DNA of 43,625 bases, taken from Candidatus Colimorpha enterica (GTDB lineage Bacteria; Bacillota; Clostridia; Oscillospirales; CAG-272). This document shows positions 9,907 to 25,353 of the stretch, piece after piece. Made by a program: the position numbers and the translations under genes. The notes beneath the pieces are model-generated. The model did not search any database. It was not told where the DNA came from and was given only the letters and a program-made list of their open reading frames with translations. The stretch spans positions 1-43,625 of the forward strand of contig FR891151.1 of the NCBI GenBank assembly GCA_000433515.1, written 5' to 3'. Each line of letters starts with the position of its first letter. Positions within the stretch are counted from its first letter, which is position 1.

Positions 9907-9911
9907 GCTAT

Positions 9912-11609
<1,698 letters not shown>

Positions 11610-11679
11610 TTATCGCTTGTCTTTATTATAACACAACTCGAAAAACATTTCAACACTTTACAACGCTAAAGCGAAAGTT

Positions 11680-13343: not shown

Positions 13344-13550
13344 AGGGCAGGTATCACTTACAATCGCCACAACAAAACATAATAGGAATTGAATCCGATT
13401 ATGCGTGTGATGATATGTAACTGATACCTACCCTTAAACTGATTGCTGAACCTTGGGCAATTTGCTTTGCAAATTGCGTGGGGGGATTCATCTGTGCGAC
13501 AAATCTCCGTAAGCTTCACAATCCCCCATATTCACAGATGGGAGGATGGA
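13344..13550. other. Cluster of inverted repeats; candidate oriT or structured RNA
   Basis: gggcaggtatcacttaca (13344-13361) pairs with tgtaactgatacctaccc (~13416-13433). A perfect 9-bp hairpin gcaatttgc-ttt-gcaaattgc is present. The stems gggggatt/aatccccc and catctgtg/cacagatg are interleaved in 1-2-1'-2' order. Confidence 0.35.
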
Positions 13551-13600
13551 TCACTAAAAATATGTGTTATTTAATTGTAGATTTAGAAAAACGATATGTA

Positions 13601-14146: not shown

Positions 14147-14149
14147 CGA

Positions 14150-14764
14150 CTACCTCCTTTTCTTCAAGCGGTGCATTACGCAGACCGCAACTCCTTGTAT
14201 CTTTAGATCTCGCGGATATATGTCGGGATAGGTTTCTTTATCCTCGTTGCAAGAACGGAGAATGTATCTGCCGTTATCAATAACAAGCTCCTTGAGATTG
14301 TTAAGACCTTCATAAAGAGCAACAACGTAATCTCCGTCGCTTGCGGTATTTTGCTTGCGAATAACAACGTAGTCGCCTTCGTTCACTCCGGCGTCGATCA
14401 TAGAGTCACCCTTTGCGATCAGCACGAAAAACTCTCCCGTGCCGACTAAGCTTTCGGGGAGACGGATATACTCGATGACTTCCTCTGTTTCTTCTTCACC
14501 CTCGCCGCAACGGACGTAACCGAGAACGGGAGCTGAGGCATGGCGCGATTCCATATCGATACGTTTAGTGGAGATCGACTTGCGCCCGTTGTATTCAAGA
14601 TTGCCGCTTTCTTTGAGCGAGAGCAGATAACGATGCACGGTTGCCAAAGCAATTCCCGTGCCCTCCGCGATAGTTCTCACGGCAGGAATCTCGTTATATT
14701 CATTGTAATACCCGTCGATGAAATCAAGTATCACACTCTTTTTCGATTCGTCTTTTCTTCGCAT
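14150..14764 (-). CDS. LexA-like repressor (winged HTH + S24 peptidase autocleavage domain)
   Basis: Start at ATG 14764 with GGAGG 5 nt upstream. N-terminal wHTH (IPAVRTIAEGTGIALATVHRYL). S24 motifs are IAKGDSMIDAG (Ser nucleophile) and NNLKEL (Lys). The position aligned by eye to the LexA Ala-Gly scissile bond reads VRCGEG. Confidence 0.85.
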   Translation of the reverse strand: MRRKDESKKSVILDFIDGYYNEYNEIPAVRTIAEGTGIALATVHRYLLSLKESGNLEYNGRKSISTKRIDMESRHASAPVLGYVRCGEGEEETEEVIEYIRLPESLVGTGEFFVLIAKGDSMIDAGVNEGDYVVIRKQNTASDGDYVVALYEGLNNLKELVIDNGRYILRSCNEDKETYPDIYPRDLKIQGVAVCVMHRLKKRR

Positions 14765-14775
14765 AACGCCTCCAA

Positions 14776-14790
14776 GAAACAAAATGTTTC
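14776..14790. promoter_or_regulatory. Palindromic operator O1 GAAAC-AAAAT-GTTTC
   Basis: Perfect 5-5-5 inverted repeat between the -10 and the RBS of the LexA-like gene. Confidence 0.55.
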
Positions 14791-14803
14791 AGTATGTAGA
14801 GCT

Positions 14804-14832
14804 ATTATATCACATTATTTTTTAGTTGTCAA
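14804..14832 (-). promoter_or_regulatory. Consensus sigma-A promoter of the LexA-like operon
   Basis: On the minus strand: TTGACA, a 17-nt spacer, then TGaTATAAT (extended -10). Confidence 0.7.
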
Positions 14833-14841
14833 GAGATTAGT

Positions 14842-14856
14842 GAAAATATTTGTTTC
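14842..14856. promoter_or_regulatory. Operator-like O2 GAAAA-TATTT-GTTTC
   Basis: Same 5-5-5 architecture as O1 with one half-site mismatch. It lies between the two divergent promoters, 8 nt upstream of the -35 of the exonuclease promoter. Confidence 0.4.
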
Positions 14857-14864
14857 ATTTGTGC

Positions 14865-14893
14865 TTGAAAAATTCATAAAAATATGATATAAT
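14865..14893 (+). promoter_or_regulatory. Near-consensus sigma-A promoter of the exonuclease-BRCT gene
   Basis: TTGAAA, a 17-nt spacer, then TGaTATAAT. Confidence 0.7.
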
Positions 14894-14927
14894 ATCAATA
14901 ACGCCATTGGACAAACAGGGGGCAGAT

Positions 14928-16634
14928 ATGAAAGTAACATTTTTTGACGTTGAATATGCCAACGTTCGAAACAAATCGATATGTCAAATCGGTATTTTGA
15001 GCAGAGATTTAGATAATCCTAACGCAGAGGTCGATAAATTGGATCTTTTTGTAAATCCCGAAGATGGATTTGACGATAACTGTGTTCGCATCCACGGTAT
15101 CACGAGCGATACTGTTAAGGGCGCTCCCTCGTTAAATAACATTTGGGACGATATCGAACAGTATTTTACGAATGCGGTTATCATTGGGCACAACGTTGCT
15201 TCTGCCGACTTGGATGCTCTGCACAAGAATTTAGTGAGATACGGTATTGAAGTCCCTGAAATCTATTACATTTGCACCTATCAGCTTGCGAAGGAGCTTG
15301 TTCCTTCCTTTGCCGTTTCCGATTACGCGCTCGGCACTTTGTGTAATTTCTTTGGCATCACAATTGCAGAAAAGCACAACGCTTTTTACGATGCTTGTGC
15401 CTGCTCCGATCTTTTGGACAAGTTGGTTGACTATTCGAAAATTAACATCGAAAGCGAAATTCAAAGATATATTCCGAACGATAACGCAGACTTTATCGCT
15501 TACATATCCAATGCTTCGCTCAAAAAGGATATTCATGCCCTATACGGTATGATCAGAGGATTCACATTGGACTCCGAAATATCGGAGGATGAGAAGGAAT
15601 ATATTAAATCGTGGAGAGGAACATTCGCTCCCTATACATCTCACGCGGATGTATCTACCATCATTTCTGTCATCGATAATATTTTGGCAGATGATGTCAT
15701 CACTCTTGACGAAGTAAATACGCTTCAGCTGGAGATTAGAAGACACCTCGATATCGTTTCTACATCTACGATTACTCTTGCTACACAGATTTTGAATGGT
15801 ATTATCAAGGGCATTATCACCGACGAAGAAATTACGTATGAAGAATGTCAAAATCTCCGTGCTTGGTTGTACGAAAACAATTATCTCTCCGGTCATTTCC
15901 CGTTTGATAAATTATATAGTGAGATCGAAGTCGTTTTGGCTGACGGGGTGTTAACTCCCGCCGAAGCGCTTTCTATCAAGAACGAAATTAGCAATCTTTT
16001 AGATCCCGTTGAGTCCTTGCGAAAGGATGTAATGTCTCTCAAGGGTAAGCGCATTTGCCTCAGTGGTAATTTTGCCTTTGGTCAAAAATCTGCCGTTGAG
16101 CAGTATATCATTGAACAAGGTGGTATCATTGAGACAAGTGTCAAGAAAACAACGGACATCTTGGTTGTCGGTGATTACGAATGTAAATCCTATTCCAACG
16201 GAACCTACGGCACAAAGGTAAAGAAAGCGATTGAGTACAACGGCAAGGGCTGTAATATCCAAATTTCCAAGGAAAGTGATATTATTAAGCCGGCGAAATC
16301 CTTTAGCGAGGTCTTGTTTGGTTTTATTGATGCAAGCGGACTTGGTGATGCCGAGGTTTATAAAAAGGCACAACTTCCTCGTCAGATGATGTCAAAAATC
16401 AAATGCGTACCCAATTATCTCCCTTCCAAGCAAAACATTTGCGCTTTTGCAATTGCATTGGAACTTAACGTGGAACAGACCAACGAATTGCTTTCTTCAG
16501 CAGGCTATGTTCTTTCAAGAAACTTTGAGTTCGATAGAATTATTGAGGACGCCATTGCCCACGGCAATTACGATATTTTCAATATCAACGAAAAAATGTA
16601 TGAGCTCGGTATTTCGTGGCTCGGCGCAAAATAA
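14928..16634 (+). CDS. Multidomain protein: DEDDh (DnaQ-like) 3'-5' exonuclease, TerB-like helical repeats, BRCT domain, C-terminal XRE-like HTH
   Basis: ATG 14928 follows GGGGG.
- Exo motifs: FFDVEYAN (D-x-E), GHNVASADLDAL, HNAFYDACA (H-x4-D).
- Internal repeats: LYGMIRGFTLDSEISEDEKEYIKSW and ILNGIIKGIITDEEITYEECQNLRAW.
- BRCT-like: LKGKRICLSGNF...GGIIETSVKKTTDILVVGD.
- C-terminal: PSKQNICAFAIALELNVEQTNELLSSAGYVLS. Confidence 0.75.
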   Translation: MKVTFFDVEYANVRNKSICQIGILSRDLDNPNAEVDKLDLFVNPEDGFDDNCVRIHGITSDTVKGAPSLNNIWDDIEQYFTNAVIIGHNVASADLDALHKNLVRYGIEVPEIYYICTYQLAKELVPSFAVSDYALGTLCNFFGITIAEKHNAFYDACACSDLLDKLVDYSKINIESEIQRYIPNDNADFIAYISNASLKKDIHALYGMIRGFTLDSEISEDEKEYIKSWRGTFAPYTSHADVSTIISVIDNILADDVITLDEVNTLQLEIRRHLDIVSTSTITLATQILNGIIKGIITDEEITYEECQNLRAWLYENNYLSGHFPFDKLYSEIEVVLADGVLTPAEALSIKNEISNLLDPVESLRKDVMSLKGKRICLSGNFAFGQKSAVEQYIIEQGGIIETSVKKTTDILVVGDYECKSYSNGTYGTKVKKAIEYNGKGCNIQISKESDIIKPAKSFSEVLFGFIDASGLGDAEVYKKAQLPRQMMSKIKCVPNYLPSKQNICAFAIALELNVEQTNELLSSAGYVLSRNFEFDRIIEDAIAHGNYDIFNINEKMYELGISWLGAK

Positions 16635-16635
16635 T

Positions 16636-16680
16636 TGTCACTTTCAAAGATACCAAAGTTAATTTAATATTTGTTATAAT
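16636..16680 (+). promoter_or_regulatory. Box-promoter P1: 19-bp box TGTCACTTTCAAAGATACC + 20 nt + TGtTATAAT
   Basis: The box (16636-16654) starts 2 nt after the exonuclease stop codon. The extended -10 is at 16672-16680. Confidence 0.55.
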
Positions 16681-16716
16681 GCACTCACAAGGTAAGTCCT
16701 TGTGGGTGCATTTTTT
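16681..16716 (+). terminator. Rho-independent terminator gcactcacaagg-taagt-ccttgtgggtgc + ATTTTTT
   Basis: 12-bp stem with one mismatch and a T-run. It begins immediately after the P1 -10 hexamer. Confidence 0.7.
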
Positions 16717-16728
16717 GATGATAGCAAA

Positions 16729-16773
16729 TGTCACTTTCAAAGAGACCACACTTGAACGGATATTTGTTATAAT
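16729..16773 (+). promoter_or_regulatory. Box-promoter P2: TGTCACTTTCAAAGAGACC + 20 nt + TGtTATAAT, upstream of the NERD gene
   Basis: Box at 16729-16747 and -10 at 16768-16773. The spacing is identical to P1 and P3. Confidence 0.6.
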
Positions 16774-16827
16774 TAAGGCACAAAAGGAAAATACATTAAA
16801 AATCATTTAAAACAAAGGAGAATCACA

Positions 16828-17901
16828 ATGAAAAGAGCAGAAGATTTTATCAGAGAAATGGAGAGCAGCAACGTATTGATGTCGAAGGAAGTTACCTTCA
16901 ACGAGTATGTATCCGAGCTTCTTGGATTTCAAAATGTTGTTTGCAAAATGGTAGCGGGAGATGCTTACCACGAGCAAATGCGCATCGATGAAGCGCTGTT
17001 TCTCATGGAATCCACCGCACGTAAAAATGATGTTCGCAATCATCCTGCGGTACATAACGGTATCATCACAATGAAAAAGCTTTCTAAGGAATTGGCAATT
17101 ACTATGTCTGGTGCCAAGGGTGAAAGTCTTGTTTCCAAAACCTTGGAATATTTAAACAGACCTAACACCAAGGTGTATCGCAATGTTTACATTACCGACG
17201 GGCAGGATGAAACGGAGCTTGATGCTATTGTTTTGACGGATTCCGGCGTGATCATTTTGGAGGTTAAGAAGGTTAAGTCCGATCTTACACTTACCGAAGA
17301 CGGTAGAATGGTATTTGCAAGTGATGAGTGCTATGATAAGATCCCTCTTGGTGAAAAAATGGCAATCAAGCGCAAACTCTTGAAGAACGCACTTGAAAAA
17401 GCCGTTGCTTCTACTGGTTTGGATATCCCCGTATACGTTGACAGTTACATCGTATTTTCTGCACCCAAGGGACAGTACATCAAAATTGATGATAGATACC
17501 GTAAGGAAAAGCATTGCTTCCGCACGGGTCTGAATCGGAAAATTGAGAACTACCTCGGTTGTGCTTACTACAAGCATGATCAGCTTGATCAGCTTGATAA
17601 GATCTTTTCCGAAATGGAATCTAACGTAAAGCGCTTTGAAACAGAACTCAACTATGATGATGTTCGTCGTAGTCTTGCCGAGGCAATGGTGGTTCTTCAG
17701 GGTGAACCCGAAAGTACCGCGGAGGCAAAGTCAGCGAATCCTGAGGAGCGCAAGTCTAAGGTGATTGATCCCAAGATTGTCCGTGAAAAGTTGGAACAGA
17801 AAGAGAAGAAAAATATCGGCTTTGATTATATTGCTGCCGGTGCCGCCGCTTGTGTTCTCGGATTTGCTATGATGCTCGGTCTTGGATTTAAGCGCGCATA
17901 A
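16828..17901 (+). CDS. NERD (nuclease-related domain) protein with C-terminal transmembrane helix
   Basis: RBS AAAGGAGA. NERD-type block GAKGESLVSKTLEYL...ELDAIVLTDSGVIILEVKKVK. The C-terminus YIAAGAAACVLGFAMMLGLGF is hydrophobic. Confidence 0.75.
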   Translation: MKRAEDFIREMESSNVLMSKEVTFNEYVSELLGFQNVVCKMVAGDAYHEQMRIDEALFLMESTARKNDVRNHPAVHNGIITMKKLSKELAITMSGAKGESLVSKTLEYLNRPNTKVYRNVYITDGQDETELDAIVLTDSGVIILEVKKVKSDLTLTEDGRMVFASDECYDKIPLGEKMAIKRKLLKNALEKAVASTGLDIPVYVDSYIVFSAPKGQYIKIDDRYRKEKHCFRTGLNRKIENYLGCAYYKHDQLDQLDKIFSEMESNVKRFETELNYDDVRRSLAEAMVVLQGEPESTAEAKSANPEERKSKVIDPKIVREKLEQKEKKNIGFDYIAAGAAACVLGFAMMLGLGFKRA

Positions 17902-17902
17902 T

Positions 17903-17947
17903 TGTCACTTTCAAAGATACCTTTTAGACAAACAATAATGATATACT
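17903..17947 (+). promoter_or_regulatory. Box-promoter P3: TGTCACTTTCAAAGATACC + 20 nt + TGaTATACT, upstream of two small ORFs
   Basis: The box starts 2 nt after the NERD stop codon, as for P1. A partial box, aatgtcacc, follows the -10. Confidence 0.6.
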
Positions 17948-17990
17948 AATGTCACCAGGAAAACAAATTGAAATATGAAGGAGAAAATTT

Positions 17991-18167
17991 ATGAAATTAT
18001 TGAGTAGTATCATTGGATTAATCAAATGGTTGGTTGGGGCGGCACTCTTCTTGGTTGTGTTTTTATTATGTCTCATATTTGTCCCCGGAATTTTCGATGA
18101 GATTATCATAGCCATTATTGCTGTAGCGGCCGCAATTGCAAATCCGCCTTCAATAGAGGGTGATTAA
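17991..18167 (+). CDS. 58-aa hydrophobic small protein (two predicted TM segments); not in the ORF track
   Basis: RBS GAAGGAGAA lies 6 nt before the ATG. Product: MKLLSSIIGLIKWLVGAALFLVVFLLCLIFVPGIFDEIIIAIIAVAAAIANPPSIEGD. Confidence 0.6.
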   Translation: MKLLSSIIGLIKWLVGAALFLVVFLLCLIFVPGIFDEIIIAIIAVAAAIANPPSIEGD

Positions 18168-18182
18168 ATCAAAGGAGGTAAG

Positions 18183-18353
18183 ATGAGTATGAAAATCAAT
18201 GTTATGAAATCAGGCGACAAGGTACTTAATGTAACAAGTGAGTTTGTTGCCATTGAAAGAGTTAGCGGTGAGGTAGATATCCTACCGTTAATCCGTCAAG
18301 AGTCGGGAGTTTGGTTAGACACAAAAAACATCTTAATATGCCTGAATGGTTGA
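18183..18353 (+). CDS. 56-aa small soluble protein; not in the ORF track
   Basis: RBS AAAGGAGGT lies 4 nt before the ATG, 15 nt after the preceding stop. Product: MSMKINVMKSGDKVLNVTSEFVAIERVSGEVDILPLIRQESGVWLDTKNILICLNG. Confidence 0.6.
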   Translation: MSMKINVMKSGDKVLNVTSEFVAIERVSGEVDILPLIRQESGVWLDTKNILICLNG

Positions 18354-18401
18354 AACAATACATATAATATGTGAATTCAATTTTTCGGTTTGAAATCTTA
18401 C

Positions 18402-18440
18402 GTTGCAACAACCATAATCATTGGTTGTTGCAACTTTATT
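18402..18440 (+). terminator. Rho-independent terminator after the small-ORF pair
   Basis: gttgcaacaacca-taatcat-tggttgttgcaac followed by TTTATT. Confidence 0.7.
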
Positions 18441-18450
18441 GCTACATATA

Positions 18451-18479
18451 TTGACTTTTACTACATTTTGTGATACAAT
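18451..18479 (+). promoter_or_regulatory. Sigma-A promoter of the HTH/esterase/ABC operon
   Basis: TTGACT, a 17-nt spacer, then TGaTACAAT. Confidence 0.65.
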
Positions 18480-18504
18480 AAACGCAAATGAGTAGGAGGG
18501 TTAT

Positions 18505-18981
18505 ATGAATAGCTATAATGTTAAACAAGTAGCTGACCTGTTAAAAACCAATCCCGAGACCGTTCGACGCTGGATTAGATCTGGTAAATTGGTCGCACAA
18601 CAGGATTCTCGTAAGGGTGGAAATATTATTTGCGAAAGTGCTTTGAGAGAATTTGTAAAATCAACACCTAAGTATGCTGGAACTACAACCGCCTTTCTTT
18701 TGGGAACGGCTGCTTTGTCTACCGCCTTAATCGGAGGCATTGTCGCACATAAACTGTCTGCCGAGGAAAACATAAAAAATGCCCATATTTCCGCAAATGA
18801 CATATGCGAATTTGTATCTACAGAAATTGAAGCACTTTCAAGCTCTGTTTCAAACAAAAGAAAAACTATCCGTCATTTGGAGTCGGAGATAGAAAACGAA
18901 AGCAAAAAGATAGAGGAATTGAGAGAACTTCTTAAAACACTTTCAACTTTATCCGATGGAGGGGAAAAAGATGAAAGATAA
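18505..18981 (+). CDS. Excisionase/MerR-type HTH (HTH_17-like) protein fused to a TM segment and a C-terminal coiled coil
   Basis: RBS GTAGGAGGG. N-terminus YNVKQVADLLKTNPETVRRWIRSGKL. Hydrophobic TTTAFLLGTAALSTALIGGIVA. Heptad-like EIEALSSSVSNKRKTIRHLESEIENESKKIEELRELLKTL. Confidence 0.65.
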   Translation: MNSYNVKQVADLLKTNPETVRRWIRSGKLVAQQDSRKGGNIICESALREFVKSTPKYAGTTTAFLLGTAALSTALIGGIVAHKLSAEENIKNAHISANDICEFVSTEIEALSSSVSNKRKTIRHLESEIENESKKIEELRELLKTLSTLSDGGEKDER

Positions 18982-20140
18982 TCTGCTAAATGAACACCTC
19001 CTAAAAATAACCGAGTATAAAGCCATCGGTGAGCTTCCCAATCCATTCATGTTTGATAATGCAAACTACGTTTCATCAATAGACGAGTGGGAACGCCGGA
19101 AGCGAGAAATCGCAAAAACGACAATAGATGTGCAATTTGGAACATTACCACCAGCCCCCGAAATATTTTGGGTTGAACAACTGAATTGTGGTAAAGAACA
19201 TCGATCATATAAAATTCATGCTGGTACAAAAGAAAAACAAATCTCTTTTGTAGTAAAACTTATTATGCCAAAGGGCGAGAGTCGTCCAATAATCATTGAT
19301 GGAGATATGTGCGCAGGTTATTTTATGAAAGAAGATTTCATAAATGCCGCAGTTTCCAGAGATATCGGTTGGCTTTTGTTTGATAGAACAGAACTTGCAC
19401 ATGATCTTAAGGAAGAACGAGGTCGCGCTGGTGCACTATACGATATCTATCCTGAATACACTTTCGGTGCATTGGGTGCTTGGGCTTGGGGGTATTCACG
19501 TTGTGTTGACGCTGTAATAAAACTCAATCTTCCGCAAATTGATTGCTCATGCATCGTAGCCACCGGACATTCAAGAGGTGGTAAAGCAACGATGCTTGCA
19601 GGAGCAGTTGATGAAAGAATTGCTATCGTTAATCCAAACGAAGCTTGCCTTGTCGGTGGAGGATGTTATCGAATAGAAATGGTAGGAGACTATCCCGACC
19701 TTTTGCCTTGGAGAAGCGAAACCTTAAAGGACATATGTAAGGAAACTGATTTTTGGATCGGTCCAACAATGAAGAACTATATCGGACGCGAAAATGAATT
19801 GCCCTTTGATACACATTTTCTGAAAGCGTTAGTTGCTCCGCGAATTTTATTTGTATCCGAAGCGGCTGGCGATATATGGGCAAATCCTATAGGCTCTTGG
19901 ATGACTACTGAAGCTGCTAAAGAAGTCTACGAGTTTTTAGGCGCAGGTCCTAATATCTATTGGTATTTTAGAACCGGAACTCATTATCACAAAGCAGAAG
20001 ATATAGAAATGCTTGTCAATATTATCTGTCACATCCATGACAACGAGGATATCAGTGATAGCTTTTATAAGTTACCCTTTTCTCCGCCCGAATATCTATT
20101 TAGTTGGAGAAAGCCTAATTTCAAATTAAAAGGAGAATAA
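18971..20140 (+). CDS. Alpha/beta hydrolase, CE15 glucuronoyl-esterase-like
   Basis: The preferred start is ATG 18971, with GGAGGGG 6 nt upstream; it overlaps the preceding gene by 11 nt. The nucleophile elbow is VATGHSRGGKATMLAGAVDERIA (G-x-S-R-x-G-K as in CE15). Confidence 0.6.
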   Translation: MKDNLLNEHLLKITEYKAIGELPNPFMFDNANYVSSIDEWERRKREIAKTTIDVQFGTLPPAPEIFWVEQLNCGKEHRSYKIHAGTKEKQISFVVKLIMPKGESRPIIIDGDMCAGYFMKEDFINAAVSRDIGWLLFDRTELAHDLKEERGRAGALYDIYPEYTFGALGAWAWGYSRCVDAVIKLNLPQIDCSCIVATGHSRGGKATMLAGAVDERIAIVNPNEACLVGGGCYRIEMVGDYPDLLPWRSETLKDICKETDFWIGPTMKNYIGRENELPFDTHFLKALVAPRILFVSEAAGDIWANPIGSWMTTEAAKEVYEFLGAGPNIYWYFRTGTHYHKAEDIEMLVNIICHIHDNEDISDSFYKLPFSPPEYLFSWRKPNFKLKGE

Positions 20141-20144
20141 AATT

Positions 20145-21209
20145 ATGAAACGAATTTTGTCTTTAGTTGTTGCTATGCTTATGATCATCAGTTTGACTGC
20201 TTGCAATAGCAATCAAGGTTCAACGGATAAAGAAACCAAGAAAATTATAGATGCCGCTGGAGACGAGGTTATCATTCCTGCCAAAGTAGATACAGTAATC
20301 AATCTTGTTACATACGGATGCCAAGTTATGGTTGGGCTTGGATTTGGTGATTATCTTGTCGGTATTAATGTAGATGCTATCGAATCTCCATGGATGGCTG
20401 AAATGTATCCGAGAACCAACGAAATTGAAAAATTTGACCAAGAAGCAAGTGCTGAAATTCTTTTGAGAGCAAATGCTGACATTGTTCTTGTTCAAGAAGC
20501 AGAGCAAGCTCGCGATTTGAGAAGCAAGGGTGTTACGGCAGTCACCTTTTCATATTGGTCTTTGGAGGATATGAAGGCAACCATTAAAATGTTAGGGGAT
20601 ATTTTGGGTGGAGATGCTGTAGAAAAGTGTAATAAATATATTGCCTATCTCGACGGAAACATTGCATTGGTCGAAAACACTCTCAAAGATAAGGTACTTG
20701 AAAAAGAAACTCTCTATTATATAAACGGTGTTTCTAATAAAGGGCTATATAAAACTGCTGGAAAGGGTTCTACAAATTCTGCCTGCGCTCAACTTTCCCA
20801 TACCATATTTGCAACAGATTCACTGATAGAATCCCCTGCTAATAAGGTTGATAGCGAAGCAATCTTATCGGTGAATCCTCAAAATATCATAATTGGTGGA
20901 AAATATCAGCATGTCCTCTACGACGAATTGATGGTAACATCTGAATGGTCTAACAACACTGCTGTAAAAAACGGGCATGTATTCAAGGTTCCAATGGGTA
21001 TTTCTGCTTGGAACAGATACGGAATAGAGATTGCCCTAATGATTACATGGACAAGTGCTGTTGTTTATCCTGAGTACTTCGAATATGATCTTGTAAAGGA
21101 AACCATCGATTTTTACAAGGAATTTACCGGGATTACATTGACAGAGCAGCAAGCTCAGTATATTTTAGAGGGGTTGACGCCAAGTGGAGAAAAAGAAATT
21201 ACAAATTGA
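20145..21209 (+). CDS. ABC importer substrate-binding lipoprotein, iron-siderophore/cobalamin (FecB/BtuF, TroA-like) class
   Basis: Lipobox ISLTAC. The size and pattern are typical of periplasmic-binding-protein type 2. It precedes a FecCD permease and an ATPase. Confidence 0.7.
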   Translation: MKRILSLVVAMLMIISLTACNSNQGSTDKETKKIIDAAGDEVIIPAKVDTVINLVTYGCQVMVGLGFGDYLVGINVDAIESPWMAEMYPRTNEIEKFDQEASAEILLRANADIVLVQEAEQARDLRSKGVTAVTFSYWSLEDMKATIKMLGDILGGDAVEKCNKYIAYLDGNIALVENTLKDKVLEKETLYYINGVSNKGLYKTAGKGSTNSACAQLSHTIFATDSLIESPANKVDSEAILSVNPQNIIIGGKYQHVLYDELMVTSEWSNNTAVKNGHVFKVPMGISAWNRYGIEIALMITWTSAVVYPEYFEYDLVKETIDFYKEFTGITLTEQQAQYILEGLTPSGEKEITN

Positions 21210-22236
21210 AAATCTTTATCAAGGCAAAAAGAAAAGCCAACTTTGGATTTTCGCTTTATTAATCATTACTGTTTTTCTTGCCGTTGTGTCCTTGTTTATA
21301 GGTCAATACGGAATGTCATTCTTTGATACTGTTAAAAGTGTTGTGGGCATCAATAGCGGCGTAGAAGCTGAAAACATCAGAAAAATCATTTTGAATATTC
21401 GTGTTCCAAGAACTGTAGCATCGATTGTAATTGGCGGAATATTGGCAATTGCCGGACTCACCTATCAATGTATTTTCCGAAACACATTGGTTTCGCAAGA
21501 CATCTTGGGTGTGAGCACAAGTTCTTGCGTTGGCGCTGCTCTTGGCATCGTATTAGGATGGAGTACCCTTCATATTCAGTTTTTGGCATTCGCTCTTGGT
21601 GTGTTGAATATTTGTCTGATATTTTTGCTATCTTCACGAATAAAGCTTGATAAGACGCTTTCTTTGATTTTGTCCGGCATATTAATCGGAGGAGCCATGT
21701 CGTCTGTGCTTGCTCTTATTAAATATATGGCGAATCCGGAAGTGCATTTACAAGCAATCGTTTTCTGGACGATGGGAGATATTTCTTCAATAACGCTGGA
21801 TCAGTTAGGATTTATTGCTGTGCCTGTGATTGTCTGTACCGTTATACTCTTCGCAAAGAGCTGGGATCTTAACTATTTCTGCTTCGTTGATAGCGAAGCA
21901 AAAAGCATGGGCTTTAACCTCGCTCGTAATAGAATTATTTTTCTTGCATGTGCAACTGTTTTGGTTGCTTCGGCCGTTTCTATTTCGGGATCCATAGGAT
22001 GGGTTGGTCTTGTTATTCCTCAATTGGTACGACTGTTAATTGGGACAAACAATCGCTATACAATGCCACTCTCGTTTTTAATGGGAAGCTCCTTTTTGCT
22101 TTTGGTAGATGTTCTTAATCGTTTGATTTCCGCTGCAGAACTGCCAGTAAGTATTTTATCCGGTTTGCTTGGATTGCCGTTGTTTGTTGTATGCTGGCTC
22201 ATAAACGCTAAACATAGTGAGGTGGAAAGCAAATGA
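21184..22236 (+). CDS. FecCD-family ABC permease
   Basis: About 9-10 hydrophobic segments, with blocks such as RVPRTVASIVIGGILAIAGLTYQCIFRN. The start codon is uncertain (GTG 21184 overlaps the SBP gene). Confidence 0.75.
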   Translation: MEKKKLQIENLYQGKKKSQLWIFALLIITVFLAVVSLFIGQYGMSFFDTVKSVVGINSGVEAENIRKIILNIRVPRTVASIVIGGILAIAGLTYQCIFRNTLVSQDILGVSTSSCVGAALGIVLGWSTLHIQFLAFALGVLNICLIFLLSSRIKLDKTLSLILSGILIGGAMSSVLALIKYMANPEVHLQAIVFWTMGDISSITLDQLGFIAVPVIVCTVILFAKSWDLNYFCFVDSEAKSMGFNLARNRIIFLACATVLVASAVSISGSIGWVGLVIPQLVRLLIGTNNRYTMPLSFLMGSSFLLLVDVLNRLISAAELPVSILSGLLGLPLFVVCWLINAKHSEVESK

Positions 22237-23024
22237 TTCAAGTCAAGAATTTATCATTTAGATATAAGAACAATCTCCCTTTGATACTTGATGATTTGTC
22301 GTTTTCCATCGAGCGTGGATCTATTCTTTCGATTTTAGGCAAAAATGGTGTAGGCAAAACAACATTTATCAAATGCTTAACGTCTGAGATAAAAAACTAC
22401 AGCGGAACCATACTTGTTGATTCGAAGGATGTTCGACAATTATCCATAAGTGAATTATCAAAATCAATTGCTGTTGTAGCCTCAAACAATCCCTGTTATC
22501 AAAACTTATGCGTTGCAGACTTTCTCGTCACAGGATTTGCTAATAAACTTACAGCTCTCAAAGCGCCGAGAAAAAACGAATATGAAAAAGCATGTTCTGT
22601 CTTGGATGAATTAGGTCATGTAGATTTGCTTAATCGAGCTATCTTTGAACTATCATCCGGTGAATTGCAAATTGTAAAAATAGTACGTGCAATACTTCAA
22701 AATCCGAAGGTTATAGTTTTTGATGAACCTACTTCTAATCTTGACATTAAAAATCAATTGATTGTCCTAAATCAAATTACAGGACTTTCGCAAAGAGGAT
22801 ATACCGTAATCACAACAACTCATAATCCGGGACAATCAATAGAGCTTGGAGGAATGGTATTGATGATGTCCGGGTCGCATCAAATCTTTGGCAAAACCGC
22901 TGAAGTGCTTACGGCAGAAAATCTTCGAAACACATACAACCTCAATGTTTCGATTGAAGAAGGGCGGTTCCGGCAGTATGCCTCTTTTGAAGATGAATCT
23001 GGAATTCATCGGTTAATATATTAA
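22233..23024 (+). CDS. ABC transporter ATP-binding protein (FecE/FepC-like)
   Basis: Walker A GKNGVGKTT, signature LSSGELQ, Walker B VIVFDEP. A 4-nt ATGA overlap with the permease gene. Confidence 0.85.
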   Translation: MIQVKNLSFRYKNNLPLILDDLSFSIERGSILSILGKNGVGKTTFIKCLTSEIKNYSGTILVDSKDVRQLSISELSKSIAVVASNNPCYQNLCVADFLVTGFANKLTALKAPRKNEYEKACSVLDELGHVDLLNRAIFELSSGELQIVKIVRAILQNPKVIVFDEPTSNLDIKNQLIVLNQITGLSQRGYTVITTTHNPGQSIELGGMVLMMSGSHQIFGKTAEVLTAENLRNTYNLNVSIEEGRFRQYASFEDESGIHRLIY

Positions 23025-23048
23025 CATTTATTACACACATTTATGGAA

Positions 23049-23087
23049 ATAGCCGTGTGGACATTTTGTCCACACGGCTATGTTTTT
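23049..23087. terminator. Bidirectional terminator between convergent genes
   Basis: Perfect 14-bp stem atagccgtgtggac/gtccacacggctat with a T-run. Confidence 0.75.
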
Positions 23088-23586
23088 AGTTTTCTTTTTC
23101 ACTTACAACAGCAAGCATTAGTTTTGCTCCAAGTTTGAAGGCATACTCAAATATAGCTGCTTCTGCAAGACTCACATACTCGTTCCAACAATCTTGGTAC
23201 TTTTCAAAGATGACTTTTTGTTCGTCGGTTAATAGCTTTTCTAAATCCTCATCATGCCTTGCTATATAACTGATGAGTTCCTTCATTTCCTTCGTGTTGG
23301 TTCGGCTATCTTCTTGCGGTATGATATTTCCGTGCCATAGTTCATTGATGATCGACCTCATTGATAGACCACCTCCTGCAGGACGATTTCTTCCGGAACT
23401 GCCTTGCCAACGAAATGCAAAGGACTTCTTTGTTTTCGTTTGTGTGATTCCTGTTTTGGCGTACACTTTATTCTTGATAGAGGAAAGTGTATCAGCCGAA
23501 ACATCAGACGCAGCATTTTGACTTACGAGTTTTTCAAGCTCGTTTGCGGACGCTTCATCGAAAATATTATTTAGTGTTTTTTTCAT
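23086..23586 (-). CDS. Composite ORF: anti-sigma-like N-terminal segment fused in frame to a small helical protein that retains its own RBS and ATG (23361)
   Basis: The N-part MKKTLNNIFDEASANELEKLV...SSIKNKVYAKTGI resembles proteins encoded after clostridial ECF-like sigma genes. The internal GGAGGTGG lies 7 nt before ATG 23361 and opens MRSIINELWHGNIIPQE... Confidence 0.55.
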   Translation of the reverse strand: MKKTLNNIFDEASANELEKLVSQNAASDVSADTLSSIKNKVYAKTGITQTKTKKSFAFRWQGSSGRNRPAGGGLSMRSIINELWHGNIIPQEDSRTNTKEMKELISYIARHDEDLEKLLTDEQKVIFEKYQDCWNEYVSLAEAAIFEYAFKLGAKLMLAVVSEKEN

Positions 23587-24143
23587 ACCTCATTACCTCC
23601 AAACAATTTACGAAGTTTGTTTAAGGCTCTGTGTGTTCGGGTATCAACATTTGATACGGTCAGACCGACAGCCTTGGCAATATCCTTGGAGGACTCTCCG
23701 TAATAAAACTTACGGAAAATAATACTCGAGTCAGGCTCGCCGAGATCTTCGACCGCCTTGATAACCTCACGCCTAAGTTCATCTTCGGCGAGTTCGCTAT
23801 CGATTATTACGTCATCCGCAACCTGCAAAAGTGATTGCTCATCATCGAGGGAGATGCCTCCTTCGAGACTTCGTCTCTTAGAAACGTTGATCGCTTGATT
23901 ACGTGCGATGACGCACAGATAGGTTTTTATACTCGATATCTTAGGATCGTAGTCGGACAGCTCCGCATAAAATTTGCTGAATACGTCTGCCACACAGTTT
24001 TCAATATCGGATGATACATAATAAGAATCGTCAAGTTTGCTTTTGACAACAGCATAAACAAGACCTGTGTACTGATTCATTAATTGTTCCATTCCGGCGT
24101 TCGGGTCTTTATGTAGTAGTCGAAGTAACTTGTTATCCTCCAT
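23583..24143 (-). CDS. Sigma-70 family (ECF-like, regions 2 and 4) RNA polymerase sigma factor
   Basis: Start at ATG 24143 after AGAGGTGAG. Region 2-like LMNQYTGLVYAVVKSKL...DIENCVADVF. Region 4 HTH SSKDIAKAVGLTVSNVDTRTHRALNKLR. An ATGA overlap with the downstream ORF. Confidence 0.8.
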   Translation of the reverse strand: MEDNKLLRLLHKDPNAGMEQLMNQYTGLVYAVVKSKLDDSYYVSSDIENCVADVFSKFYAELSDYDPKISSIKTYLCVIARNQAINVSKRRSLEGGISLDDEQSLLQVADDVIIDSELAEDELRREVIKAVEDLGEPDSSIIFRKFYYGESSKDIAKAVGLTVSNVDTRTHRALNKLRKLFGGNEV

Positions 24144-24307
24144 ATTCTCACCTCTGTCTTTGAATCGATTCACTATTATATACAATCGAGAACGCAAAAT
24201 CTTACACATCAATTCGAACCTATATAAAATTTTATCAAAAATTATTTAAAAGGCAAGATTTGAAGTTGCAAATCCCAAACACATAAGAAATCGAAAATTT
24301 GTTGAGA

Positions 24308-24344
24308 TTTTGACCAGTTCTGTACTGGTCAAATTGTGGTCAAA
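24308..24344. repeat. GGTCAAA iteron cluster A (palindrome tttgaccagt-tctgt-actggtcaaa plus one direct copy)
   Basis: Read directly. Confidence 0.8.
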
Positions 24345-24379
24345 ATTTTCTGCAAAATAAAAAATTGTGCAGAATGATG

Positions 24380-24429
24380 AAAAAAACGACCGTTTTCAAG
24401 GGGTTTAAGCCTCAAAAACGGTCTTTTTT
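24380..24429 (-). terminator. Bidirectional terminator 3' of tRNA-Pro
   Basis: The stem gaccgtttt...aaaacggtc is flanked by an A-run and a T-run. Confidence 0.6.
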
Positions 24430-24505
24430 TGGTCGAAGTGCGGAGACTCGAACTCCGTGCCTCCTGGTCCCAAACCAGGCGCTCTACCAGATGAGCTACA
24501 CCTCG
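24430..24505 (-). tRNA. tRNA-Pro(UGG): tRNA-Pro (anticodon UGG), CCA encoded
   Basis: Minus strand: CGAGGTG TA GCTC ATCTGGTA GAGC G CCTGG TTTGGGA CCAGG AGGCA CGGAG TTCGAGT CTCCG CACTTCG A CCA. All four stems pair, with one G-U in the acceptor stem. Confidence 0.9.
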
Positions 24506-24545
24506 AAGGTGAAAAAACTTATGAAATTGTAGTTCTCACAGAACT

Positions 24546-24588
24546 GGTCAAAATTGTGGTCAAACCACTTTTGCGAGGGTAGGTCAAA
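24546..24588. repeat. GGTCAAA iteron cluster B (three copies)
   Basis: Copies at 24546, 24558 and 24582. Confidence 0.8.
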
Positions 24589-24643
24589 CAGCAAATGCTC
24601 GTTTTTCCTCCGTTTTTCTCGCGTTTCCTCGCTTTTTTGAAGA

Positions 24644-24705
24644 GGGGATCGGGTAGCGACCTTTAGCTCCCAAATGCGGTGCGATACCAGCTTCGCCACA
24701 CCCCG
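24644..24705 (-). pseudogene. tRNA-Pro relic 2: intact 5' half through the anticodon loop, T-arm missing
   Basis: Minus strand: CGGGGTG TG GCGA AGCTGGTA TCGC A CCGCA TTTGGGA GC. It then continues TAAAGGTCGCTACCCGATCCCC, with no anticodon-stem or T-arm pairing. Confidence 0.7.
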
Positions 24706-24730
24706 AAGTGTGAAAAATATTCGATTTTTA

Positions 24731-24766
24731 GGTCAATTTCCGTAAGTGGTCAAATCTGTGGTCAAA
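24731..24766. repeat. GGTCAAA iteron cluster C (three copies)
   Basis: GGTCAAT at 24731, GGTCAAA at 24748 and 24760. Confidence 0.8.
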
Positions 24767-24869
24767 ACATTTTGTCGGTGTTTTTTTGAAAAGGGTAACA
24801 GCCGAAAAAGTCAATGTTTTCAAGGGTTTTCATGCATTTGAAAAATCAAGAAGCCAAAACCGCCTGCAT

Positions 24870-24908
24870 GCTCCCAAAACTGGTGGGTGACCGTTACCCT
24901 ACATCCCG
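24870..24908 (-). pseudogene. tRNA-Pro relic 3: 5' half only
   Basis: Minus strand: CGGGATG TA GGGT AACGGTC ACCC A CCAGT TTTGGGA GC, followed by unrelated sequence. Confidence 0.65.
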
Positions 24909-24923
24909 ATATTCGGTTTTTGC

Positions 24924-24958
24924 GGTCAAATCCGTAAGTGGTCAAATCTGTGGTCAAA
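24924..24958. repeat. GGTCAAA iteron cluster D (three copies)
   Basis: Copies at 24924, 24940 and 24952. About 60 nt around it align with cluster C. Confidence 0.8.
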
Positions 24959-25056
24959 ATTTTTTGCCGAAACACACGGCGGAGGAAAAGCGAGAAAATG
25001 CGAGGAAAACGGAAATTTTGCGAGCTTTCGGCGGTCGGCTCATGAGGCGGTCACAC

Positions 25057-25095
25057 GCTCCCAAGCAGGCGCGCTGCTAACTGCGCTGCATCCCG
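25057..25095 (-). pseudogene. tRNA-Pro relic 4: 5' half only
   Basis: Minus strand: CGGGATG CA GCGC AGTTAGCA GCGC GCCTG CTTGGGA GC, followed by unrelated sequence. Confidence 0.6.
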
Positions 25096-25353
25096 TTTGC
25101 GGCTGATTGTTACTGCAAATCAATTCTGAACAGTCAATATTGTACCTCATTTGCGCCGCAAAGTCAATAGGAGCAGAGGATTTTTTCAAACTTTGCATAA
25201 CGAAGAAACCGACGAACGTCACTCTGCGCTCTGAATCTCTCCGATATTCGCTGAAATCGCGCATCTGTGAGACGGCTTATCCGCGAAGGTGAACCGCGTG
25301 TGAGCCGTTTTTAAAAAATGTTACGGAAATTTCAGATTATTTCGGATAAAATA

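Follow-up and report, generated by a model that had tools for sequence, protein, structure and literature searches.

An array of orphan tRNA-Pro 5' halves, very probably the scar of repeated site-specific insertions, ahead of an intact tRNA-Pro(UGG) gene in Candidatus Colimorpha enterica

The window, i.e., the whole stretch of 43,625 nucleotides analysed here (contig FR891151.1), carries on its minus strand an intact tRNA-Pro(UGG) gene and, upstream of it, three orphan 5' halves whose starts, read directly from the sequence, lie at 24705, 24908 and 25095. The stubs are called R1, R2 and R3 and the stretches behind them arms; loci compared with the window carry L numbers. The features of the locus are as follows, in the direction in which the tRNA gene is read.

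25139..25167, minus strand: sigma-70-type promoter TTGACT-17-TACAAT (promoter scan, 10/12), in the chromosomal flank common to all strains
25059..25095, minus strand: R3, CGGGATG CA GCGC AGTTAGCA GCGC G CCTGC TTGGGA, with a loop one base short
24909..25058, minus strand: alpha arm, read as the end of the first incoming element, starting GCGTGTGACCGCC, with GACCAC repeats just ahead of its tRNA
24936..24965, minus strand: GACCAC-N6-GACCAC pair in the alpha arm (repeat family D2)
24872..24908, minus strand: R2, CGGGATG TA GGGT AACGGTC ACCC A CCAGT TTTGGGA
24706..24871, minus strand: beta arm, read as the end of the second incoming element, starting GCATGCAGGCGG
24744..24773, minus strand: GACCAC repeat pair in the beta arm
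24668..24705, minus strand: R1, CGGGGTG TG GCGA AGCTGGTA TCGC A CCGCA TTTGGGA
24506..24667, minus strand: gamma arm, read as the end of the latest element, starting GCTAAAGGTCGCTACCCGA, with GACCAC/GACCAG repeats ahead of its tRNA
24542..24571, minus strand: GACCAC/GACCAG pair in the gamma arm
24430..24505, minus strand: intact tRNA-Pro(UGG), allele E (ARAGORN; Rfam tRNA, 63.7 bits)
24378..24423, minus strand: intrinsic terminator of the element-borne tRNA, a 14-bp stem and T run (inverted repeat I5)
24309..24353, minus strand: GACCAC/GACCAG pair and palindrome TTTGACCAGTACAGAACTGGTCAAA, beyond the intact tRNA
9842..24308, no strand given: 14.5-kb segment (Pfam)

All three stubs stop at the anticodon loop TTGGGA, which is followed by GC and then by unrelated DNA; the start-to-start distances in the array are 187, 203 and 200 bp. 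The D-stems of the four copies are GCTC/GAGC, GCGA/TCGC, GGGT/ACCC and GCGC/GCGC. A 5'-half HMM trained solely on intact alleles from other strains recovered R1 (E=4e-8), the intact gene (1e-6) and R3 (7e-4), with no other match in the window at E<1, and a second model built from 21 alleles of other species recovered R1 (E=6e-8) and R2 (E=2e-3). R2 is identical at 37/37 positions to the 5' half of the intact L001 gene; R1 shares 35/38 positions with the intact L066 allele, the D-stem difference being a compensatory pair, and R3 shares 34/38 with the intact L021 allele. The exact R1 allele was not found intact in any other genome searched. When stretches cut exactly at the stub break were run in the truncated mode of Infernal, the general tRNA model ranked first among the families for both R1 and R2, with 16.2 and 13.9 bits, respectively, and with model positions 1-37 covered in each case, while R3 gave no Rfam tRNA match even in this mode. 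The stubs are not a chance resemblance, as the HMM, allele identity and Infernal evidence shows. An Rfam scan at E<=10 over 23800-25800 detected no stub, and it is uninformative because half molecules within longer DNA cannot score. The initial annotation had described one intact tRNA-Pro(UGG) gene with three diverged 5' halves in ~200-bp units, which was supported by HMM, ARAGORN and Rfam, and compensatory differences among the D-stems, which held as stated; covariance-model scoring, named there as a check, was passed by R1 and R2 and not by R3.

The universal tRNA positions are kept in R1 and R2. R3 is missing U8 (it has C8), the D-loop GG and one loop base, and is therefore an old, decayed copy. 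R2 is very likely the orphan 5' half of a tRNA-Pro (allele B) that was delivered by an alpha-type element, and there is equally strong reason to regard R1 as the orphan 5' half of a tRNA-Pro delivered by a beta-type element. R3 is likely to be the oldest stub and probably represents the original tRNA-Pro gene of the species. It also appears likely, although inferred from sequence alone, that the promoter at 25139..25167 is the native one of this original chromosomal gene and now drives R3. The terminator scan found no terminator between the array units.

When all loci were pooled, the lone 5' halves numbered 70 and the arms fell into 39 types, 35 of which open with GC. The GC behind TTGGGA is a conserved arm start and does not belong to the tRNA. 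In other genomes, at least 11 distinct tRNA-Pro 5' halves, and some additional hosts, were seen with the gamma arm attached; the beta arm type is also found in L004-L007 and L009, there behind another 5' half, and an alpha-type arm in L096 is inserted into an E-type tRNA. The sequence 'CTACCCG-A' behind the 24705 stub belongs to the arm of the incoming element because the same sequence trails 11 other 5' halves. The suggestion that one stub might be a whole tRNA with a T-arm deletion thus failed on arm identity and also with ARAGORN, which called no tRNA in any stub taken together with its downstream 76 nt. Over their first 100 nt, the three arms in the window are unrelated (z = 1-2.5) and are therefore not one unit duplicated; similarity among them is seen over the last ~60 nt (z about 7; D1 and D2 repeat families). 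Together with the allele matches, the unrelated arms uphold the earlier view that the copies come from different tRNA-Pro alleles and not from slippage.

In 55 distinct arms, the motif GACCA[CG] was counted 117 times, with 4.1 occurrences expected, and the far arms of L058, L087, L072 and L109 contain it as well. The beta arm contains a promoter-like TTGACC-18-AAAAAT at 24753-24724 (promoter scan). The GACCAC repeats are candidate arm-type integrase sites and/or promoter -35 elements, which is an inference without binding data. The pair and palindrome at 24309..24353 are the last part of the element still in common with L010, L006 and L007, where the integrase genes come next.

The comparison with 12 same-species contigs showed that the right flank is identical and that 1 to 5 stubs stand ahead of one intact gene, so that the intermediate states with 1, 2 or 3 relics proposed for a search by the initial annotation do exist, along with states of 4 or 5. 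R3 with the alpha arm is present in all 12 contigs, R3 having point variants, and the lower units differ. Each arm type tends to accompany its own downstream tRNA allele: the whole gene of allele E, identical in sequence, stands behind the gamma arm in L003, L005-L008, L015 and others. The 3' half of allele E is identical whichever tRNA was the target, and the replacement gene therefore arrives whole. An excision 'ratchet' that leaves hybrid tRNAs was dropped because no hybrid gene was seen among the alleles compared. The original tRNA-Pro gene is dead in every examined strain of the species, and the working allele depends on the strain. Allele E is very likely element-borne, the present working copy at the locus and the next potential target; that the host relies on an element tRNA is inferred. 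In lookups, the left-flank protein (17-958) had no record, and GH43 returned solely short contigs with the same arrangement as the window.

Two complete elements, of 7.15 kb in L058 and 13.2 kb in L109, were found with both junctions visible. In L058, the upstream junction reads ...GGTGG TTTGGGA/GCATAG... after the host 5' half, and at the far junction, 7.15 kb off, the host 3' half follows as ...AAATGCG/TTTGGGA/CCATC...CACTCGGACCA. In each case both halves of the host gene are displaced and rejoin to give a normal tRNA-Pro, which ARAGORN calls tRNA-Pro(UGG) for L058, and a whole tRNA-Pro of the element's own lies about 160 bp inside one element end. The junction core is the 7-bp TTTGGGA, or TTCGGGA in L109, where the host target is a tRNA-Pro(CGG); the element-borne tRNA of L109 keeps the isotype Pro, with the anticodon AGG versus CGG in the host. 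Both junctions fall inside the anticodon loop, and the core is too short for stub and arm to make up a functional tRNA again. The L058 element encodes int1, int2, HTH_17, HTH_36, DUF6809 and its own tRNA, with no relaxase detected in this gene content, and the L109 element carries int1, int2 and a MobL relaxase. Phage structural genes were not seen in the element content, which comprised integrases, excisionase-like and HTH proteins, DUF6809, MobL and cargo. Scans of viral contigs (IMG/VR) for the gamma and delta junctions gave 0 matches; the same search for the gamma junction in metagenomes returned 7 loci, every one an integrated copy, and the faecal contigs labelled 'Bacteriophage sp.' lack a terminal repeat, are thus not circular, and likewise contain integrated copies. 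Integrase-bearing elements, which had been suggested for a search, were found outside the window as the int1/int2 pair, complete in L058 and L109; the excised circular form (attP) and the far arm of the gamma-type element were not recovered.

The elements encode a conserved pair of paralogous tyrosine integrases, int1 and int2, and an excisionase-like protein. A search on integrase homology alone with a single query returned 80 species-level loci. At 46 of these 80, a tRNA-Pro lies on the opposite strand just beyond int2, and in 38 of the 46 the tRNA-Pro is preceded by 1 or 2 lone 5' halves, the median distance being 190 bp. At nearly all loci with enough room, int1 is directly upstream of int2. 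The nearest solved relative of both integrases is the Tn1549 Int (PDB 6EMY; E=1e-15 and 6e-11); both have an N-terminal motif like an arm-binding domain, and int2 carries another motif of this kind at its C-terminal end. ArdA- and methylase-type genes of conjugative elements are found in the neighbourhood of L008. These elements are likely to be small, integrative and apparently mobilisable elements of gut Clostridia, the relaxase being seen in L109 and none being detected in L058.

By Pfam, the window encodes no tyrosine integrase of this family. The segment at 9842..24308 encodes a large serine recombinase (9912-11579), TnpW, a relaxase, a LexA-like repressor, an exonuclease, NERD and an iron-type ABC transporter, and related strains hold the int1-int2/excisionase module where the window has this segment; the array of the window is therefore without its cognate integrase. 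The flanks of the window and L010 are identical and the content differs. The ends of the segment lie outside any tRNA loop and do not coincide with the stub junctions, the serine recombinase protein was seen in the lookup only in contigs with the same arrangement, and an IS is located at the far side in the window. A 3'-half HMM built from 21 alleles (a 5-sequence predecessor was too weak, with E=0.023 on the true gene) found no lone 3' half anywhere in the window, and the far-side junctions of the locus were not seen. The initial annotation had predicted a displaced 3' half at 1043-1070. This prediction failed: the 3'-half HMM gave no match there even at E<=1000, Rfam in truncated mode gave none, the 8-mer CATCCCGA turns up 4 times in the window where 1.3 copies would be expected, and the half is not detectable. 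Searches of the window with T-arm regular expressions and the acceptor strand returned only the intact gene and a weak 3'-half candidate at 1052, which was rejected after failing both HMM and Rfam.

The array is very likely a left-hand scar, produced as elements of a two-integrase family inserted site-specifically time after time. Serial integration through the anticodon loop by elements that bring their own replacement tRNA-Pro and strand 5' halves had been proposed initially, and it held as the central model. The junction sequences, the modularity, the strain variation, the complete elements with both host halves and the linkage to the integrase pair are shown by our data. In the proposed mechanism, the core of the element would be the 7-nt tRNA-Pro anticodon loop TTTGGGA, followed by an arm with GC at its start, GACCAC repeats at its end and a length of about 150-165 bp, then by a complete tRNA-Pro gene and its terminator, two paralogous tyrosine integrase genes reading toward the tRNA, the excisionase-like gene, cargo and a second arm also with GACCAC repeats. 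Strand exchange would take place inside the loop of the resident tRNA-Pro, which would be split and never rebuilt, the 5' half remaining upstream and the 3' half being shifted to the element's other end; the role of the split gene would then pass to the tRNA-Pro of the element, which lies about 160 bp downstream of the junction. That the integrase pair catalyses the exchange, and the exact cleavage positions, are inferred from sequence alone. The replacement gene has the same loop and would therefore be the next target, so each arrival would add a unit of ~190-200 bp, composed of the previous 5' half and the new arm, directly upstream of the newest gene. The order of events inferred for the window begins with R3, the original gene under a promoter of its own; R2 and R1 followed in turn, and the present gene came last. 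The later loss of the older element bodies with their 3' halves is assumed and was not observed, and host dependence on the element's tRNA is likewise an inference.

Several other explanations were considered. Canonical 'reverse-orientation' tDNA islands, in which the 5' portion of the element regenerates the gene with the host 3' half, would make the units miniature or deleted elements. Displaced 5' fragments are indeed known (159/3,919 in Islander; PMC4383910), and the units do sit between a 5' fragment and the next gene. However, the allele E 3' half does not change with the target, L058 and L109 have both host halves displaced and a whole gene 160 bp inside the element, and the integrases and cargo are downstream of the intact gene and not between stub and gene, which makes this explanation very unlikely.

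The 5' halves might instead be kept for a function, as expressed tRNA-half RNAs or as extra promoters for the downstream tRNA, and not be neutral scars. Promoter-like hexamers are present in each arm, R1 and R2 are undecayed and the units are not separated by a terminator. We likewise hold this to be very unlikely, since the number and identity of the units vary freely among strains and the oldest unit is decaying. Stub and arm fold no better than shuffled sequences (MFE, z = 0.06 to 2.2), but this weak method was not counted as evidence because cloverleaves were not reproduced even for real tRNAs.

Local tandem duplication or slippage of a promoter-plus-tRNA unit, with later divergence and 3' truncation of the upstream copies, would account for the regular ~200 bp spacing and the similar arm ends (D1, D2). 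It is all but excluded by the unrelated first 100 nt of the arms, by the match of R2 to an intact allele of another strain, by identical arms behind different 5' halves across strains and species, and by the position of every break at the same loop position beside the conserved GC. The last candidate, the large serine recombinase of the window (TnpX-like) acting at the GA of TTGG-GA-GC, is the sole recombinase in the window, and TnpX/TndX-type enzymes cross over at GA dinucleotides, but it can be practically ruled out because the arrays in 46 other species and in most same-species strains adjoin the tyrosine-integrase pair with no serine recombinase alongside, the segment ends (24308 and 9842) are not in a tRNA loop, the protein is confined to contigs with the same arrangement, and the 7-bp identity is typical of tyrosine-recombinase overlap regions.

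Repeated insertion by two-integrase elements therefore remains the preferred reading, and a bolder form of it can be formulated, which we hold to be possible but less likely than not. It holds that these are a widespread, undescribed family of two-integrase mobilisable elements with a 'takeover' strategy, in which the newcomer would kill the tRNA-Pro gene in current use, usually that of the previous element, and substitute its own. The host would then depend on the newcomer and the previous element would be dispensable, and therefore old bodies would vanish while 200-bp stubs pile up. If true, an essential translation gene is serially swapped for foreign alleles in these bacteria. The targets are alike only in the 7-nt loop and their flanking stems are wholly different; recognition may therefore depend on how the DNA of the anticodon stem-loop is shaped, or on its dyad symmetry, and not on its sequence. 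An integrase pair accepting any tRNA-Pro allele with just these 7 nt in common, its catalysis being inferred, would be an interesting case of target recognition.

The stub array can be read as an ordered log of past invasions with the oldest on top, and stub arrays may be of use in strain typing and in reconstructing the succession of elements. In the species of the window, the tRNA-Pro at the locus has passed to mobile DNA and varies with the strain, which bears on translation-gene turnover and element-host addiction. Half-tRNA stubs are also a source of tRNA annotation errors, and island finders that expect a regenerated gene and one fragment would mis-delimit such elements.

As for known systems, an integrative and mobilisable element (IME) is defined by an integration/excision module of its own and a relaxase/oriT in the absence of conjugation machinery; of these features, L109 shows int1, int2 and the MobL relaxase, and L058 shows the integration module with no relaxase detected. 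A Tn4451/TnpX-type element does not fit as the maker of the array, whose junctions are missed by the segment ends and which occurs elsewhere without that recombinase. Integrases of the Tn916/Tn1549 family insert with low target specificity and tolerate heteroduplex overlaps, whereas the elements described here are specific to tRNA-Pro anticodon loops, their integrases are paired and int2 has an extra C-terminal motif. In the accretion of ICESt1/ICESt3 of Streptococcus thermophilus, newcomers use the att site of the resident and att-flanked CIME remnants persist. There the elements are neighbours with repeated att sites in common, whereas here the newcomer nests within the tRNA gene of the resident and the remnant is a fixed ~200-bp piece of arm and half tRNA.

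Canonical islands in tRNA and tmRNA genes (Williams 2002; Islander, PMC4383910) have anticodon-centred sites in 2,083/3,919 islands and a displaced 3' fragment in 3,760/3,919 or a 5' fragment in 159/3,919; tandems of at least 3 are rare in Islander (4 cases), each member with its own integrase and fragment. The tyrosine integrase, the anticodon-loop crossover, the displaced fragments at the ends and the tandem occupancy of a tDNA are common to both systems. The far-end fragment of canonical islands is present in L058 and L109, with no lone 3' half in the window, and their internal tyrosine integrase is present in related strains and species and absent from the window. The target is regenerated in canonical islands, whereas here it is not, both halves being displaced and a separate whole gene supplied, and up to 5 stubs stand 200 bp apart without element bodies between them.

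The closest known mechanism is the tRNA-dependent lysogeny of actinobacteriophages described by Guerrero-Bustamante and Hatfull (2024, PMC10865867), who also cite the Lactobacillus johnsonii prophage Lj965. In that system, a tyrosine integrase acts on an attB within the host tRNA gene, and the common core is short, so that no functional tRNA is rebuilt. Similarly, the junctions here lie in a host tRNA gene with an integrase pair in the elements of related loci (not in the window), the 7-bp core is too short to rebuild a tRNA at the junctions, and the element supplies a whole tRNA-Pro about 160 bp inside. The differences are that the carriers are not phages (the MobL relaxase of L109, no phage genes seen, 0 matches in the viral contig scans), that two paralogous integrases are used versus one, and that insertion is directed at the tRNA-Pro anticodon loop in Clostridia. 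The principle 'disrupt the tRNA and bring your own' would thereby extend past actinobacteriophages to non-phage elements that are common in the gut Clostridia of humans and animals. About 160 bp separate the crossover from the replacement gene, which serves as a target in its turn; therefore the insertions nest and the 5' halves stack, which is not described in PMC10865867, and this self-renewing target with its stacked stubs is likely to be new.

The only tRNA gene of the window is an intact tRNA-Pro(UGG) (63.7 bits; ARAGORN and Rfam), upstream of which three orphan tRNA-Pro 5' halves (stubs R1, R2 and R3, the last being the oldest) were read directly.

Features of the array and its surroundings
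25167-25139: near-consensus promoter TTGACT-17-TACAAT, upstream of R3
25095-25059, minus strand: R3 5' half, CGGGATG CA GCGC AGTTAGCA GCGC G CCTGC TTGGGA
24908-24872, minus strand: R2 5' half, CGGGATG TA GGGT AACGGTC ACCC A CCAGT TTTGGGA
24705-24668, minus strand: R1 5' half, CGGGGTG TG GCGA AGCTGGTA TCGC A CCGCA TTTGGGA
24505-24430, minus strand: intact tRNA-Pro(UGG)
24423-24388: terminator left of the array, on the tRNA 3' side (terminator scan)
24353-24309: GACCAC repeat pair and palindrome, past the terminator
9842-24308: 14.5-kb mobile segment, past the repeat pair and palindrome

Each stub runs on into GC and then into non-tRNA-like sequence, and the start-to-start spacing of the array is 187, 203 and 200 bp. 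Searched with a 5'-half profile made solely of intact genes in other strains, the window gave R1 (E=4e-8), R3 (7e-4) and the intact gene (1e-6), with no further match at E<1; a second profile, made from 21 other-species alleles, recovered R1 (6e-8) and R2 (2e-3). When stretches cut exactly at the break were tested for truncated hits with Infernal, R1 (16.2 bits, model positions 1-37) and R2 (13.9 bits) both had the general tRNA model as their top family, and R3 gave no match to it. R2 and the 5' half of contig L001's intact gene are identical at every base, R1 matches an intact allele at L066 in 35 of 38 positions, the D-stem difference being a compensatory pair, and R3 matches an intact L021 allele in 34 of 38. 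R3 has decayed, with C for the universal U8, the D-loop GG gone and one loop base missing, positions that are all intact in R1 and R2. The initial annotation, which described an intact tRNA-Pro and three 5' halves in units of about 200 bp, is upheld by the profiles, Infernal and the intact-allele identities, and the D-stem differences it listed between copies are also correct.

Ten long contigs of the same species were obtained by exact lookup of the PadR protein; their right flank is identical, the DNA to the left is very different, and the array is present in all ten. R3 and the alpha arm that follows it (arms being the element ends of about 150-165 bp between a stub and the next tRNA) occur, with point variants (e.g., CTTCGGGA), in every same-species contig and are therefore fixed and old. 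Below this unit the arrays differ between strains, and a metagenomic contig (L096) represents an additional strain with at least three stubs.

Number of stubs, R3 included, in same-species arrays
1: L001
2: L002, L008
3: L003, L005, L010 and the window
4: L006, L007, L009
5: L004

This polymorphism is accompanied by a clear modularity, in which a few arm types recur (alpha, beta, gamma, delta, epsilon and others), each usually with its own tRNA allele downstream, and the 5' halves upstream may differ. The gamma arm, which follows R1 in the window, follows four other alleles within the species, and 11 different 5' halves are joined to it across all loci. The 3' half of allele E, the intact element-borne tRNA-Pro(UGG) type present in the window, is constant regardless of the gene invaded, so the replacement gene arrives whole and is not assembled at the junction. 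Since a gamma/E unit lies inside another gamma/E unit in three contigs (L004, L006 and L007), the gene brought by an element can itself be invaded. The rival explanation that the array is a duplication of a single unit is all but excluded, because the three arms in the window show no significant similarity over their first 100 nt (z = 1.0-2.5), and their relatedness is confined to the last ~60 nt (z about 7), where the GACCAC repeats lie.

Several further features of the arms and arrays were observed. A purine-rich block (GCGAGGAAACGCGAGAAAAACGGAGGAAAA) is found in both the gamma (24591-24630) and the alpha (24982-25021) arm, in opposite orientations and with 78-89% complementarity; it might be a binding site usable either way round. 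A 5.9-kb module encoding TetR and a giant FG-GAP-repeat protein in L003, L005, L006 and L007 (e.g., L006 2934-8790) sits exactly after the ACCA of an E-type tRNA, ahead of the gene's usual terminator, and this placement points to another site of insertion, at the 3' end of the tRNA. In L005 (~700-210, minus strand) a non-tRNA arm is joined to a delta arm at TTTGGGA, an attP-like or tandem junction, after which a second array (F stub, eta arm, intact allele D'') adjoins a DUF4368 recombinase gene. L001 carries at 7449-7523 (minus strand) two T-arm-like remnants 74 bp apart (GGCAG TTCGAAT CTATC and GGTGG TTCAAAT CTGTC), whose acceptor strands are not Pro-like; they could be scars of elements using other tRNA genes.

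Complete elements show both junctions. In L058 the host 5' half and near junction (slashes mark the joins) read CCGGGTGTGGCGCAGTTGGTAGCGCGGGTGG-TTTGGGA/GCATAGACGG, followed by a GACCAC-bearing arm, the element's own tRNA-Pro, a cargo ORF, the paired tyrosine integrases int2 (tRNA-proximal) and int1, HTH_36, HTH_17, DUF6809 and a GACCAC-bearing far arm, which ends at the far junction ...AAATGCG/TTTGGGA/CCATCAGGCCGCAGGTTCGAACCCTGTCACTCGGACCA. This element is 7.15 kb long, and the host halves pair in both the acceptor and the anticodon stem; ARAGORN calls a tRNA-Pro(UGG) once they are put back together. L109, a faecal contig, has the same architecture around a host tRNA-Pro(CGG), with the core TTCGGGA, complementary host halves 13.2 kb apart, and int1, int2, a MobL relaxase and cargo between them. 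Comparison of the two cores identifies the common core as the 7-nt anticodon loop of the targeted tRNA-Pro isoacceptor, and at both loci the target gene stays split, each of its halves having been displaced. Additional junctions of far arm, core and 3' half were found in L087 and L072. The L109 element's own tRNA-Pro (2466-2542, plus strand) has the loop TTAGGGA and the anticodon AGG, uncommon among bacteria; a loop altered in this way would protect the gene from being invaded again by the same integrase. L109 (MT835887.1) and L107 (MT839022.1) are GenBank "UNVERIFIED: Bacteriophage sp." records from human faeces, and both are bacterial chromosomal fragments with these elements and stub arrays, not phage genomes.

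In most strains two adjacent tyrosine-integrase genes lie downstream of the intact gene and read towards it, together with an excisionase-family gene; in L010 the gamma arm, E' tRNA, terminator and GACCAC palindrome are followed directly by the integrase/excisionase genes. Int1 and int2 are paralogues (37% identity) whose nearest solved relatives are Tn1549 Int and XerD. Both carry an N-terminal RKDGRWEG-type motif that resembles an arm-binding domain, and a second copy (G.IRK.G.G....WEG) occurs near the C-terminus of int2 (L010 6997-8451, plus strand; residues 413-456) and not in int1. With int2 as the sole query, species-representative genomes yielded 80 loci, spread over Oscillospiraceae, Ruminococcaceae, Faecousia, Acutalibacteraceae and other Clostridia, with int1 directly upstream of int2 at nearly all loci with enough room. 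A tRNA-Pro lies just past int2 on the opposite strand in 46 loci (43 UGG, with 21 distinct alleles, plus CGG and GGG), and lone 5' halves are found upstream in 38 of these (one in 30 loci, two in 8) at a median start-to-start spacing of 190 bp (range 183-243). All loci together contain 70 lone 5' halves and 39 distinct arms, 35 of which start with GC. Across 55 distinct arms there are 117 copies of GACCA[CG], where 4.1 would be expected, and they lie between -70 and -20 relative to the next tRNA. Metagenome matches include a split host gene with its own promoter (L095) and a split last gene of a tRNA operon (L097). The linkage of the arrays to the integrase pair is shown, as are the junctions, the modularity, the polymorphism and the complete elements.

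The GC content of the window is ~0.50 to the right of the array, among ordinary genes including PadR and an acyl-CoA-ligase cluster, versus ~0.40 to the left. Because R3 has its own near-consensus promoter, it is likely to be the original chromosomal tRNA-Pro gene. The 14.5-kb segment encodes sigma-70/DUF6809 genes, an iron-type FecCD/ABC transporter, HTH_17 protein, NERD, a glucuronyl-esterase-like gene, an RNase_T/BRCT exonuclease, a LexA-like repressor, a relaxase, TnpW and a large serine recombinase with DUF4368; no tyrosine integrase is present in the window. L010 and the window are collinear as far as window position 24309 and once more from 9841 leftwards; between these identical flanks the window has the serine-recombinase segment in place of L010's int1-int2/excisionase module. 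Beyond the segment lies an insertion sequence with a DUF772 transposase (~7753-9450), 99.7% identical to the L010 copy, which occupies the expected place of the tRNA-Pro element's far end. A RAGATH-35 match below threshold (24270-24334, minus strand; 25.4 bits vs 38.9, E=0.036) spans the palindrome TTTGACCAGTACAGAACTGGTCAAA and sequence just within the segment, and an extra TTTGGGA lies at 24279-24273; the match may be due to chance, or the "RNA" motif may really be a DNA-level attachment site. A THF (tetrahydrofolate) riboswitch aptamer was found at 42081-42179 (minus strand; 90.3 bits vs a gathering score of 36).

Serial integration at the anticodon loop by elements bringing a replacement tRNA-Pro, the main model of the initial annotation, held on the comparative evidence and is very likely the right account; the strain comparison it had called for revealed intermediate states, with 1-5 stubs across same-species contigs. 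In the proposed mechanism, the attachment site of the circular element would consist of the far arm, a loop-identical core and a GC-initiated near arm leading into its own tRNA-Pro. The integrase pair, presumably acting on the GACCAC repeats of both arms, would capture the resident gene and exchange strands inside the loop sequence; catalysis by the pair and the role of the repeats are inferred, as is host reliance on the element's tRNA. The resident 5' half with its promoter would be stranded ~160 bp upstream of the incoming gene and the 3' half moved to the element's far end, and the next element would split the incoming gene likewise, so that stubs would stack every ~190-200 bp, the oldest furthest from the live gene, with element bodies and 3' halves nested on the other side. 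No lone 3' half is detectable in the window; since the integrase module is also replaced and an insertion sequence lies at the far side, the older bodies are inferred to have been deleted, replaced or to lie beyond the window, and their loss by recombination between related nested bodies is plausible but has not been observed. Two side claims failed. A matching 3' half had been proposed at 1043-1070 (GCGCGGTTAGAATGCGACATCCCGA), where the acceptor 7-mer is correct; no 3'-half profile match was obtained there even at E<=1000, nor any with the Rfam truncated mode, CATCCCGA occurs 4 times in the window vs 1.3 expected, and the site sits in an intergenic spacer stable across other contigs. The CTACCCG-A after the stub at 24705 had been read as its degenerate acceptor 3' strand; it lies in the gamma arm and is also found after 11 other 5' halves, and is therefore not what is left of that stub's own acceptor strand.

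Such stub arrays are not described in the open-access literature searched, although subscription journals were mostly outside the search and earlier accounts are not excluded. In canonical tDNA islands the gene is regenerated and one fragment displaced (PMC4383910); Islander records a displaced 3' fragment in 3,760 of 3,919 islands and a 5' fragment in 159, anticodon-centred sites in 2,083 islands, and only 4 tandems of three or more (PMC4383910). Restoration of the gene at the junction, the defining feature of those islands, is absent in the tRNA-Pro elements. Nearest in mechanism is the tRNA-dependent lysogeny described in actinobacteriophages, whose integrase site lies partly within a host tRNA; the ~10-bp common core leaves that gene unrestored, and lysogeny needs a phage tRNA of matching isotype, which compensates for the loss (PMC10865867); the Lj965 prophage of Lactobacillus johnsonii is also pointed out there. 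The principle of a split host tRNA and a compensating element tRNA is the same, but the elements of Clostridia are not phages, have two integrases, target tRNA-Pro loops, and carry a replacement gene which adjoins the crossover and is itself a target, hence the nested insertions and stub arrays. They belong with the tRNA-splitting integrative elements bearing a compensating tRNA, among which they stand out for a target that renews itself and leaves half-tRNA scars stacked in order.
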